Of a DNA stretch of 64,000 nt, positions 34,550-43,739 are shown piece by piece; within the stretch, counting starts at the first letter, position 1, and every line of letters starts with the position of its first letter. Where the stretch lies: IMG/VR virus record IMGVR_UViG_3300022752_000021, one strand, 5' to 3'. Both the position numbers and the translations under genes were made by a program. The notes beneath the pieces were generated by a model. The model worked only from the letters and a program-made list of their open reading frames with translations, was not told the DNA's origin and searched no databases. Source of the DNA: a virus.

Positions 34550-34936
34550 ATGAAAATGGAATTCGATCACAAGTTCGTGGCAGCATTCAATACGTTTATG
34601 ACAAGTCTCAAGACGCTTGTCGAAACTTCGACCGCATCGGCTAGCACAGCAGACTACGAAGAAGGATACAAGTACATTCGCATCATTCTTGTTCGAACAG
34701 ATGCGGATGGTTCAAAAAAGAAGTCTGCGTGGGGATTCATCGACAAGCGAAGTGCCGACATTTTCCGCGCGGCAAGTTGGAAGGCTCCATGCCTCAATCA
34801 CATTCGCGGTAATCTTTACGACGATGACAATGGTCTGAAGCATTGCCATTGGACTGGTCCTGCGTACATATGGGCAATCAATGATTCCAAAAAGGAGGCA
34901 GTCGCGGCTCAACCCGCTCCCGAAGGAGGGATCTAA
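34550..34936 (+). CDS. Conserved T4-like phage hypothetical protein
   Basis: KYIRI...SAWGFIDK..DI..AASWKAP..HIRGNL pattern recalled from marine/freshwater myoviruses; GGAG RBS. Confidence 0.7.
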   Translation: MKMEFDHKFVAAFNTFMTSLKTLVETSTASASTADYEEGYKYIRIILVRTDADGSKKKSAWGFIDKRSADIFRAASWKAPCLNHIRGNLYDDDNGLKHCHWTGPAYIWAINDSKKEAVAAQPAPEGGI

Positions 34937-35205
34937 TGGGCTACAGACTGCACATCGACATTCCACTCAATCTCACCGAAGACGAGGCAATCAAGGACAG
35001 CCTTGCTATCATGTCTGCCATCGAAAACATTCTGTTGACGAACGTAAAAACTGAAGCCGATACTATCAACTATCGTCTTGGTCACGACGATGATCGTCAG
35101 AAGTCGAACTACCTCGACAAGAATGAGAATGGACACGTCAGCAACAAGAAGTCAAAGATTCTTGTGAAGAGAGAGTTGACAGCATCCGAAGGCACGATAG
35201 AGTAA
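34936..35205 (+). CDS. Hypothetical protein
   Basis: Coupled ORF with GGAGG RBS. Confidence 0.6.
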   Translation: MGYRLHIDIPLNLTEDEAIKDSLAIMSAIENILLTNVKTEADTINYRLGHDDDRQKSNYLDKNENGHVSNKKSKILVKRELTASEGTIE

Positions 35206-35616
35206 TCATGAGAGCGAAAGAAGACCATGATCAAACTCCCAGTGACAGTTGGGACAAAGCCCAACAATGTTCTTGGGATCATTAATTTCAGAAATAGTAG
35301 CGGTTTCAGGAAAGGCTTTGACGGGTTTGATATGACACATTTCGACATGCTTATCATAACCGCAGTTTTGGCATTTGGTTATGATTCCTTCGAATGCGTC
35401 TCTTGCATGATAGCGGATTTTGGCGTAACGATTGGATACATGACCTCTCTGATAAGTTGATTCTCCTTTGGTGGTGTTTAAACATGATTCTTTCAACTCT
35501 TTCTTGTTCAACTCCCCACAGGGCTTGCAATACTTGCGCCCCGATCCACACCACGCACCACACCGTTTGCACATAATCTTTCTTCTGTATTCTCTGTTAG
35601 TAGTTCGATTTGACAT
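35206..35616 (-). CDS. HNH endonuclease (free-standing, tRNA-adjacent; paralog 1)
   Basis: N-terminal CxxC zinc finger; C-terminal CQNCGYDKHVEMCHIKP...N...LCPNCHWEFDH. Confidence 0.88.
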   Translation of the reverse strand: MSNRTTNREYRRKIMCKRCGAWCGSGRKYCKPCGELNKKELKESCLNTTKGESTYQRGHVSNRYAKIRYHARDAFEGIITKCQNCGYDKHVEMCHIKPVKAFPETATISEINDPKNIVGLCPNCHWEFDHGLLSLS

Positions 35617-35664: not shown

Positions 35665-35735
35665 GCGCTGAGGGCGGACAGTTTCGCAGGCTCGCTTATA
35701 ACGAGTTCAAGCCAGGGCAGCACTGGATCGGCGTA
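35665..35735 (+). tRNA. Non-canonical tRNA-Ile(UAU)-like RNA
   Basis: Acceptor GCGCTGA/TCGGCGT+A; D-stem GCGG/TCGC; anticodon stem GGCTCG/CGAGTT with loop CT-TAT-AA; T-arm CCAG-GGCAGCA-CTGG lacking TTC. Confidence 0.65.
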
Positions 35736-35810
35736 TTTCTCAAACAGGCTCTTCGCACATGAGTCGCTGCGACAGAAGCCAAACAATCGCGACTCACAGG
35801 AGATTTTGCA

Positions 35811-36134
35811 ATGTTCGGACTTAGCAATAACAGTGTGTTCAAGTATGTCGGTGTTCTCTCTGCTCTCGTCTTCGTGTGGTTCACGTTCCTCTCACCAGAG
35901 AGCGCAAATGCAGCACAGAAGGCAAACTACGGTTTGATTGCCCTGTTTGCATCTCTTGCACTTTACTACTACTCGCAATTCACTCGCGAGCGTTCATTCC
36001 AAGAGAATGACAGTGTGTATCGTCGCATTGATGATGTTGAGCGTGAGTTCAACCTTCGCATCAATGAAGTTGAGCGTGAAGTCAACGAATGTGTTGATAG
36101 CAAGTGCGCTGATTCTTGCAAGCGCGGTCGCTGA
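35811..36134 (+). CDS. Membrane protein (two TM segments plus coiled coil)
   Basis: Two hydrophobic segments; AGGAG RBS. Confidence 0.7.
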   Translation: MFGLSNNSVFKYVGVLSALVFVWFTFLSPESANAAQKANYGLIALFASLALYYYSQFTRERSFQENDSVYRRIDDVEREFNLRINEVEREVNECVDSKCADSCKRGR

Positions 36135-36204: not shown

Positions 36205-36696
36205 TTAGTGGTCTAGTTCCCAGTGACAATTCGGACAAAGAAATGCAATGTTTTTTCTGGAGTTGATCTCTGAAAGCAGAGTATCATCGCTAAAGGATGA
36301 TATTGGTTTTACATGACATAACTCCGTGTGTTTGTCATAGCCGCATTTTTCACAACAATCAGTTTTCCAACCAAACATAGTTGCAAGTCTTTTTCCGTGT
36401 TGCCTTATTTTTTCATATCGGTGCTTTGAGGCATAACTTGAAGAACTACCAACCGAATCTTTTTTTGTTGTCTTGTTTCCGTAGTCAACACAACGACTCT
36501 GTATAGAGCAAGACTTGCAATGTTTAGGTTTGTCAGACTTTTTTCTTCGTGAACACTTTTTACCACATATCACACACTTGTTTTGTGGTTCGGTGCTTCT
36601 TTTTGGAAAAACTTTATTGTTGTGTTTTGCCGCGCAAGATTTTGAGCAAAATTTAGGATTGTTTGTATGTTGTTGGCAGTTTAGACAAAGATTCAT
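36205..36696 (-). CDS. HNH endonuclease (paralog 2)
   Basis: Start at ATG 36696 (MNLCLNC, GGGGGA RBS); NPKFCSKSCAA; CEKCGYDKHTELCHVKP...LCPNCHWELDH. Confidence 0.88.
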   Translation of the reverse strand: MNLCLNCQQHTNNPKFCSKSCAAKHNNKVFPKRSTEPQNKCVICGKKCSRRKKSDKPKHCKSCSIQSRCVDYGNKTTKKDSVGSSSSYASKHRYEKIRQHGKRLATMFGWKTDCCEKCGYDKHTELCHVKPISSFSDDTLLSEINSRKNIAFLCPNCHWELDH

Positions 36697-36706
36697 GTTT
36701 TCCCCC

Positions 36707-36777
36707 GTGAGTATGATGTAACGGCAACATGCCACTCTTCCAAAGTGGCTTTACGGGTTCGAATCCCGTTACTCACA
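36707..36777 (+). tRNA. tRNA-Gly(UCC)
   Basis: GTGAGTA/TACTCAC acceptor; CCACT-CTTCCAA-AGTGG; ACGGG-TTCGAAT-CCCGT. Confidence 0.9.
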
Positions 36778-36799
36778 TTATATATAATAAGTTGGTAGA

Positions 36800-36822
36800 G
36801 GGTTCGAATCCCGTTACCCGCT
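36800..36822 (+). repeat. Duplicated 3' fragment of a tRNA-Gly (T-arm plus acceptor strand)
   Basis: GGGTTCGAATCCCGTTAC is identical to 36755-36772; the fragment continues CCGCT instead of TCACA. Confidence 0.8.
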
Positions 36823-36826
36823 TTTT

Positions 36827-36916
36827 GGACAGATGGCAGAGTGGTCTAATGCTGCGGTTTACTAAACCGCCGATGGTTCTAGAAACCATCCGAGGGTTCG
36901 AATCCTTCTCTGTCCG
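36827..36916 (+). tRNA. tRNA-Ser(ACU), type II
   Basis: GGACAGA/TCTGTCC+G73; GCGGT-TTACTAA-ACCGC; long variable arm GATGGTT..AACCATC; canonical T-loop. Confidence 0.85.
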
Positions 36917-36917
36917 T

Positions 36918-36988
36918 TGTCCGATTGTGTAACGGTAGCACAAGAGATTCTGGTTCTCTTTGTCCTAGTTCGAATCTAGGTCGGACAA
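36918..36988 (+). tRNA. tRNA-Gln(CUG)
   Basis: TGTCCGA/TCGGACA; AGAGA-TTCTGGT-TCTCT; CCTAG-TTCGAAT-CTAGG. Confidence 0.9.
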
Positions 36989-36991
36989 TTT

Positions 36992-37073
<82 letters not shown>

Positions 37074-37078
37074 CTCAA

Positions 37079-37150
37079 GCCGCCATAGTATAAAGGCTAT
37101 TACCGTTGATTTGTAATCATCAAATCTGAGTTCGATTCTCAGTGGTGGCT
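37079..37150 (+). tRNA. tRNA-Thr(UGU)
   Basis: GCCGCCA/TGGTGGC; loop TTTGTAA; CTGAG-TTCGATT-CTCAG. Confidence 0.85.
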
Positions 37151-37153
37151 TTC

Positions 37154-37227
37154 GGTCCTATCGTCTAGTTGGTCTAGGACAGGACACTTTCAATGTCCCA
37201 ACTGGGGTTCGAATCCCCATAGGATCA
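37154..37227 (+). tRNA. tRNA-Glu(UUC)
   Basis: GGTCCTA/TAGGATC; GGACA-CTTTCAA-TGTCC; TGGGG-TTCGAAT-CCCCA. Confidence 0.9.
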
Positions 37228-38311: not shown

Positions 38312-38385
38312 GCCCCTCTAACTCAATTGGCAAGAGTAGCGGTCTTTTAAACCGCATTGTCTGGGTTCAAGTCCCAGGGGGGGCA
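38312..38385 (+). tRNA. tRNA-Lys(UUU)
   Basis: GCCCCTC/GGGGGGC; GCGGT-CTTTTAA-ACCGC; CTGGG-TTCAAGT-CCCAG. Confidence 0.92.
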
Positions 38386-43146: not shown

Positions 43147-43605
43147 TCATTTCGGGTGATCGAACAGCCAATGGCAATTTGGGCATAAAATAAGCAGATT
43201 TTCGTCTGCGTTTATTTCCGACAACATTGTCTTTGGATCAAACTCTGATATTGGTTTTCGATGACAAACCTCAACATGCTTATCCCAACCACACTGCTCA
43301 CAAGATTTTGTTTTTGTGGCTTTTGGGGTTGCTCTTGCTCTGCTTCTAACCAGAGCATATGCAGAGGATCGGTGATGTTTTGTGTATATGGCTTCTTCTA
43401 AAGTCATATCTTTCATAAATCTGTTTTCCACAAAGCATTTTTTGCAGTATTTTCTACTGCTACGCAACGGACATCCGCACGAATGACAACTTCCTTCAAC
43501 CGCTCTTTTGATGTGTATCTTATTGTTGGTTGAAGCGGCACATGAACGAGAACAAAACTTTGGATTGTTTGTTTCTTTTCCACAAGCGATACAAATCTTT
43601 GACAT
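43147..43605 (-). CDS. HNH endonuclease (paralog 3)
   Basis: Start at ATG 43605 (MSKICIACG); NPKFCSRSCAA; CEQCGWDKHVEVCHRKP...LCPNCHWLFDH. Confidence 0.88.
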   Translation of the reverse strand: MSKICIACGKETNNPKFCSRSCAASTNNKIHIKRAVEGSCHSCGCPLRSSRKYCKKCFVENRFMKDMTLEEAIYTKHHRSSAYALVRSRARATPKATKTKSCEQCGWDKHVEVCHRKPISEFDPKTMLSEINADENLLILCPNCHWLFDHPK

Positions 43606-43656
43606 GAGACGAACCTCCGTTAGACTACATATATAGTCGAAACGAAAGTTCAACTC
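43606..43656 (-). promoter_or_regulatory. RBS-sequestering hairpin with late-promoter-like TATATATG at the apex
   Basis: Minus strand GAACTTTCGTT pairs with AACGGAGGTTC (11 bp including GU; covers GGAGG); inner GACTA/TAGTC stem. Confidence 0.75.
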
Positions 43657-43663
43657 ACAAATT

Positions 43664-43739
43664 GCCCGTGTACCGGCACCGCCTTCTAAGCGGTAGAACC
43701 GTAACTGGATCGATGCAGGTTCGACCCCTGCCACGGGTG
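43664..43739 (+). tRNA. D-arm-less tRNA-Arg(UCU)-like RNA
   Basis: GCCCGTG/CACGGGT+G; only 7 nt before ACCGC-CTTCTAA-GCGGT; 20-nt variable region; GCAGG-TTCGACC-CCTGC. Confidence 0.65.

Follow-up and report, generated by a model that had tools for sequence, protein, structure and literature searches.

The elbow formed by the D-loop and the T-loop is among the most conserved features of tRNAs, and is the contact site of RNase P, the CCA-adding enzyme and the ribosome. In the tRNA-Pyl of M. barkeri, D. hafniense and M. alvus the anticodon stem has 6 bp, the variable loop is short, the D-loop of 4-5 nt lacks G18G19, T-psi-C is missing, one connector base or none is found, and the anticodon CUA is combined with G73 (PMC7609411). 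Type II mitochondrial tRNAs have lost the conserved D- and T-loop nucleotides with the cloverleaf intact, and the same 2020 review of non-canonical tRNAs makes no mention of phages (PMC7609411). As regards decoding, tRNA-Ile2(UAU) of Mycoplasma mobile reads AUA without TilS or lysidine (PMC3575796).

The gene analyzed here lies in a 64,000-nt stretch of DNA (the window) from an uncultured T4-like myovirus with genes for the baseplate hub, the wedge and the tail tube, whose nearest cultured relatives are pelagimyophages and the OM43 phage Melnitz (about 35% identity in gp6). Its D-loop contains AG without GG and its T-loop follows the pattern GGCARYA; tRNAs with this elbow are termed odd, and those with D-loop GG and T-loop UUCRANY normal. 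No description of the GGCARYA/AG elbow was found in the literature searched. Related phage loci used for comparison are designated by L-numbers. On sequence evidence, the gene most probably (about 0.75) encodes a functional tRNA-Ile(UAU) that decodes AUA and belongs to a phage-specific structural class with a rewired elbow, its allele being exchanged as a cassette. The features of the window referred to below are the following:

34936-35205, + strand: P0003, conserved 89-aa gene with no assigned function, used as locus marker
35206-35616, - strand: HNH homing-endonuclease gene (P0001-type), 136 aa, Pfam HNH_2 E 2e-10
35665-35735, + strand: odd tRNA-Ile(UAU) gene, 71 nt, no encoded CCA
35665-35671 with 35728-35734: its acceptor stem, 7 bp, two G-U pairs
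35674-35687: its D arm, 5-bp stem, 4-nt loop CAGU at 35679-35682, no GG
35689-35707: its anticodon arm, 6-bp stem, loop CUUAUAA, anticodon UAU at 35697-35699
35712-35726: its T arm, 4-bp stem plus a G/A apposition, loop GGCAGCA at 35716-35722
35735: its discriminator, A73
35811-36134, + strand: P0002, 107-aa predicted membrane protein, downstream syntenic marker
36205-36735, - strand: second HNH-like gene, Pfam HNH_2 19.4 bits, below the cut-off of 21
36707-37227, + strand: six canonical tRNAs (Gly, Ser, Gln, Tyr, Thr, Glu), 0-4 nt apart except for a 48-nt Gly-Ser gap
38312-38385, + strand: canonical tRNA-Lys(UUU); L004 holds an odd Lys allele (L004:4878-4950) in the matching slot
43147-43650, - strand: third HNH_2 gene, head-to-head with an Arg(UCU)-like element

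Cloverleaf, homologs and covariation

The element has the four arms of a tRNA, with a 7-bp acceptor stem and a 7-nt anticodon loop containing U33 and a purine at position 37. G8 and G9 lie between stems, a single unpaired A separates the D and anticodon arms, and the variable loop measures 3 nt if the G/A apposition is assigned to the T stem, or 4 nt if not. The conserved tRNA nucleotides G18 G19, T54 psi55 C56 and U8 are not preserved as a set: the D-loop is CAGU, C56 is the only one of the three T-loop nucleotides that is kept, and position 8 is G. The features listed in the initial annotation (G8, a short D-loop without GG, the 6-bp anticodon stem, GGCAGCA and A73) were all found at 35665-35735 on the + strand. 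T-rich sequence follows every tRNA of the window, this one included, and none of them encodes CCA.

ARAGORN made no call at 35665-35735, nor in any of the 21 odd loci, and Rfam returned nothing at this position at either the gathering threshold or E<=10; its tRNA model (RF00005, gathering threshold 29 bits) gave no score whatever. Because the elbow is rebuilt, standard tRNA finders miss the gene, and such programs undercount phage tRNAs. In single-sequence folding the cloverleaf was the minimum-free-energy structure, with a stability at chance level (z -1.07, equalled by 27 of 200 shuffles) and not significant on either strand. A scan for sigma-70 promoters and terminators gave none near the gene and no more than in shuffled sequences.

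Taken alone, the fold score and the lack of ARAGORN and Rfam calls would suit a cloverleaf arisen by chance or a tRNA pseudogene in decay. Copies of the element were found in IMG/VR and metagenome contigs by exact-pattern scans, and a covariance model made from the first odd variants recovered more diverged copies among 80 loci collected via the upstream gene P0003; the window element scores 101 bits (model R1). In the unambiguous alignment of ten distinct odd Ile sequences every stem cell is paired (220/220), with compensatory double changes in 12 of the 22 pairs and in all four helices. Sliding the partners as a control lowered pairing to 26-38%, and RNAalifold, unaided, gave the same cloverleaf. 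While the stems drift, no variation is seen in the anticodon loop, in A73 or at the top of the acceptor stem, and G-U pairs kept in every copy indicate an RNA read from the + strand. Similarity between copies extends from end to end of the cloverleaf and is confined to it, the flanking genes of some copies being wholly different.

Covariation among homologs, whose absence the initial annotation had named as fatal to its proposal, was therefore looked for and found, and with it the view that the stems are kept by selection rather than left to decay is borne out. Judged by this comparison, 35665-35735 is a real, evolutionarily maintained tRNA gene. The covariation data already refute the chance or pseudogene explanation, which retains virtually no probability: pairing is complete with 12 compensatory pairs over ten distinct sequences, conservation stops at the cloverleaf ends amid unrelated flanks, and the D- and T-loops are perfectly coupled.

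A protein-coding origin of the conservation, through overlapping 50-aa open reading frames, was rejected on account of the cloverleaf-bounded conservation in unrelated flanks and the pair-compensating substitutions.

The odd class consists of only ten distinct Ile and five distinct Lys sequences, all of them metagenomic. GenBank phages contained no nucleotide match to the locus, the odd Ile element or the odd Lys gene, and an exact-pattern scan of prokaryotic genomes (about 185,000 species) gave no copy of the odd Ile element.

In comparison with tRNA-Pyl (PMC7609411), the window element shares the 6-bp anticodon stem, the short (3-nt) variable loop, the small D-loop of 4-5 nt without G18G19 and the loss of T-psi-C, as well as G8 with the D. 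hafniense molecule. It differs in UAU with A73 instead of CUA with G73, in G1-U72, in having two connector bases, in the retention of C56 and in having no link to PylRS. The tRNA-Pyl-like geometry pointed out in the initial annotation holds as a resemblance in shape and does not extend to membership, since all of the phage tRNA-Ile(UAU) family, normal-elbow members included, has the 6-bp anticodon stem, and an odd tRNA-Lys (see below) combines the odd T-loop with a normal 5-bp anticodon stem, so that the two traits are not linked. Unlike Type II mitochondrial tRNAs (PMC7609411), the phage molecules show no degeneration of the elbow, both loops of which are invariant and strictly coupled, and the motif is present in two isoacceptor families. 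The compact odd tRNAs may interest engineers of orthogonal tRNAs.

Normal and odd alleles and the coupled loops

The odd tRNA-Ile gene lies in the 194 nt that separate two diverging genes, the HNH endonuclease gene (- strand) and that of the 107-aa membrane protein. Across relatives in the phage clade, a tRNA-Ile(UAU) is found directly 3' of P0003. The 80 P0003 loci form an unbiased set; about 66 have a normal-elbow tRNA-Ile(UAU), all called by ARAGORN, and seven an odd one, none of them called, and never are both present. The typical normal allele at these loci has a D-loop with GG and the T-loop UUCGAAU.

On either side of the locus, the flanks of the window and of its close relative L004 show 93-96% identity. 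The match is lost exactly at the stop codon of P0003 and regained over the final 7 nt of the tRNA (break at nt 64), and between the matched flanks there are 523 nt in the window (HNH gene and odd tRNA) versus 77 nt in L004 (normal tRNA). The normal tRNA-Ile(UAU) of L004 (L004:2850-2924, RF00005 32.7 bits) agrees with the odd one in locus, strand, acceptor top, A73, G8 G9, 6-bp anticodon stem and anticodon loop, whereas the normal form has a D-loop of 7-9 nt with GG and the T-loop UUCGAAU in place of CAGU and GGCAGCA, and only the odd form is undetected. The odd Ile sequences and the closest normal-elbow class have in common G1, C2, G3, A73, G8 G9, the 6-bp anticodon stem and the loop UUAUAA, with G1, C2 and A73 present in every member. 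The shared slot, acceptor-stem top, A73 and anticodon arm identify the odd element as an allele of a recognisable tRNA-Ile(UAU). The tRNA-Ile of L073-L077 has a 5-nt D-loop keeping GG together with a normal T-loop and, by its sequence, looks like an intermediate between the normal and odd forms.

A called tRNA-Ile(UAU) at L007:7255-7344 has a 19-nt anticodon arm identical to that of the window element, a normal T arm, an encoded CCA and an extra variable-region hairpin with loop CAGAUAA (GAU anticodon-like). At window 35761-35795 (+), an inverted repeat with 7-nt arms GAGTCGC/GCGACTC immediately precedes the ribosome-binding site from which the 107-aa protein would be translated; it is conserved in L004 and L005 and may form a processing or regulatory hairpin.

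A second uncalled cloverleaf family was found by the model, with the anticodon loop CUUUUAA (Lys-UUU), a D-loop without GG and the T-loop GGCAGUA. Its odd tRNA-Lys(UUU) genes, all uncalled by ARAGORN, are located at:

L004:4878-4950
L042:1654-1725
L049:43-114
L035:1534-1605
L100:3135-3206

In these five distinct sequences all 95 stem cells are paired (95/95), with five compensatory pairs. The anticodon stem of 5 bp and the variable loop of 5 nt are ordinary, and the rewired elbow is thus a module independent of the tRNA-Pyl-like geometry. At matching slots, L004 has a normal Ile and an odd Lys, and the window an odd Ile and a normal Lys.

Among 64 distinct Ile-UAU and Lys-UUU genes, D-loop GG goes with T-loop UUCRANY in 49/49 cases, and AG without GG with GGCARYA in 15/15. 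This coupling would represent tertiary covariation in which G18/psi55 is changed to A18/G55 and G19-C56 is kept; we infer that at most the G19-C56 contact can remain in the odd elbow.

Probable decoding of AUA

Since RNase P, the CCA-adding enzyme and the ribosome all contact the elbow, function of the odd Ile cannot be assumed. The proposal, already made in the initial annotation, that it is an AUA decoder gains support from its position in the syntenic slot of an ARAGORN-called tRNA-Ile(UAU), with which it shares the acceptor stem, A73 and the anticodon loop, and these features suggest a working isoleucine tRNA. A UAU anticodon lacks the C34 that TilS would modify, and UAU, A37, A38 and A73 are invariant in the ten odd sequences and in the normal alleles. 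AUA makes up 29% of the Ile codons (233/798) in 24 large genes of the window. The 122-kb direct-terminal-repeat genome holding L052 carries the odd Ile(UAU) together with Lys(UUU), Arg(UCU) and Leu(CAA) only, and no other tRNA-Ile was detectable in it.

The odd Ile lies 4 nt upstream of a normal tRNA-Lys in L052 and L063, and 3 nt upstream of tRNA-Tyr in L026 and L027, on the same strand in each case, a spacing that matches most neighbours in the window array (0-4 nt), which begins about 1 kb downstream of the odd gene. Its expression would involve transcription together with the tRNA region, and trimming of the precursor by RNase P and 3' nucleases; host enzymes would add CCA and attach isoleucine, and the charged tRNA would be used on the ribosome.

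With E. coli components, a UAU-anticodon tRNA-Ile is charged poorly by IleRS and misreads AUG on the ribosome, and charging by IleRS and the reading of AUA but not AUG depend on the IleRS and ribosome of the host (PMC3575796). The tRNA-Ile2(UAU) of M. mobile, which resembles the odd Ile in its anticodon and in needing neither TilS nor lysidine for AUA, requires an adapted IleRS (Arg865) and ribosome (PMC3575796); the odd Ile differs from it in having a non-canonical body.

The missing canonical elbow contacts and the failure of tRNA models to score the odd Ile would also fit a tRNA-shaped RNA that does not decode, serving either as a decoy or sponge for a tRNA-targeting defence or as a processing or regulatory element in the transcript of the tRNA region, and phage tRNAs that act against tRNA-targeting defences have been described (PMC11555353, PMC10264068). 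We consider such a role very unlikely, for the odd Ile replaces, and does not supplement, the sole tRNA-Ile(UAU) of the locus, the parts used in charging and decoding (anticodon loop, A73, acceptor top) stay invariant while the stems drift, and an RNA serving to lure a nuclease that recognises normal tRNAs should have retained normal loops.

Allele exchange, HNH genes and possible origins of the elbow

On the P0003 tree, nine switches between odd and normal alleles are needed, at least six of them forced by well-supported branches, and near-identical odd tRNAs occur in phages between which the P0003 proteins share no more than 47% identity. These two results indicate that the allele is exchanged by recombination. 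Normal and rewired alleles at the same locus, in two isoacceptor families and with at least six swaps, constitute a ready system for testing which functions require the elbow nucleotides.

The HNH gene at 35206-35616 is head-to-head with the odd tRNA-Ile and absent from the close relatives L004 and L005. As expected of a homing cassette, it is present in one and absent from the other of two near-identical genomes, with a diverged junction (window versus L004), and the odd allele, exchanged between lineages as a cassette, would in the window phage travel with the adjacent homing endonuclease. The P0001-type HNH gene was found only beside odd alleles (4/4 loci having it: window, L093, L008 and L094). 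The inserts beside normal alleles proved not to be HNH genes; they comprise cytidylyltransferase-like and dehydratase-like genes and others without an assigned function. In a coherent account, the HNH enzyme would use the common normal allele as its homing target, through a putative cleavage, and be carried along with an odd allele that is naturally immune. Homing leaves unexplained, however, the fixation of one 7-nt T-loop in two tRNA families.

The window enzyme is of the HNH_2 type with a putative cleavage site, whereas SegB is of another type, being a GIY-YIG enzyme. SegB of T4/T6 resembles it in the setting of the endonuclease gene, which adjoins tRNA genes of a T4-like phage and is surrounded by replaced alleles (PMC13096335).

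Carried further, this would make the odd allele mainly a device of immunity at the DNA level: the HNH enzyme would cut the normal allele of competing phages, the changed loops would render the odd one uncuttable, the latter would be copied in along with the HNH gene, and the RNA would still work. Such an explanation accords with the constant presence of an odd allele beside the P0001-type gene at its four loci and of the normal allele in close relatives lacking the gene, and with the HNH gene and odd tRNA being better conserved than their flanks. It also accords with the position of the three HNH-like genes of the window, each of which abuts a tRNA; the second is inserted just upstream of tRNA-Gly, itself a diverged allele with respect to L004. 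SegB-type homing endonucleases likewise cluster with phage tRNA genes (PMC13096335). However, an adjacent HNH gene is missing from 17 of the 21 odd loci, and the four that do represent only two lineages. Any sequence change could provide immunity at the DNA level, while the same T-loop is present in the HNH-unlinked Lys family, fixed while the stems diverge, which points to a constraint on the RNA. Immunity as the main cause is therefore unlikely.

A change acting on the RNA could be a counter-defence. According to a 2026 paper, Schlafen nucleases of prokaryotes cleave tRNAs chiefly at UUC in the T-loop, a single mutation of U54 or U55 abolishes cutting, and the CRISPR-associated Schlafen enzyme CbCash is a T-loop-cutting defence nuclease that requires U54 and U55 (PMC13462974). 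The odd elbow replaces exactly these two bases. By this account the AUA and AAA decoders would survive destruction of host tRNAs, and the matching change of G18 to A in the D-loop would keep the tRNA usable by the ribosome. Phage tRNAs published so far escape nucleases by changes in the anticodon loop (PMC10264068); if the account were correct, the odd tRNAs would be the first natural class with the body, and not the anticodon loop, rebuilt for evasion. The other tRNAs of the window phage keep normal T-loops, so that a broad T-loop nuclease would still cripple translation, and we regard counter-defence as a rather doubtful explanation. The odd elbow suggests a way, open to experiment, in which phages might evade nucleases directed at the T-loop of tRNAs.

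Insertions recur where P0003 adjoins tRNA-Ile, which makes this junction a hotspot (L018:996-1427, L048:2725-3156, L031:1744-2781, and L020, L025, L041 and L047). Its cargo varies by phage and is a cytidylyltransferase-like gene, a GDP-mannose-dehydratase-like gene or a minus-strand gene of about 145 aa starting with MKTFKT.

The Arg(UCU)-like element next to the third HNH_2 gene (window 43664-43739, +) has good acceptor, anticodon and T arms with a normal T-loop and no ordinary D arm, and received no ARAGORN or Rfam call. In the tRNA array, tRNA-Ser (window 36826-36917, +) has the anticodon ACU, whose A34 is unusual for bacteria; L004 is alike in this respect, and L005 has GGA in the slot. 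One array slot is occupied by Gln(CUG) in the window (36917-36989) and by Asn(GUU) in L004 (L004:3562-3635). The array is about 82% identical between the two, as against 93-96% in the flanks, which together with the Gln/Asn swap indicates that tRNA identity is also exchanged within the array.
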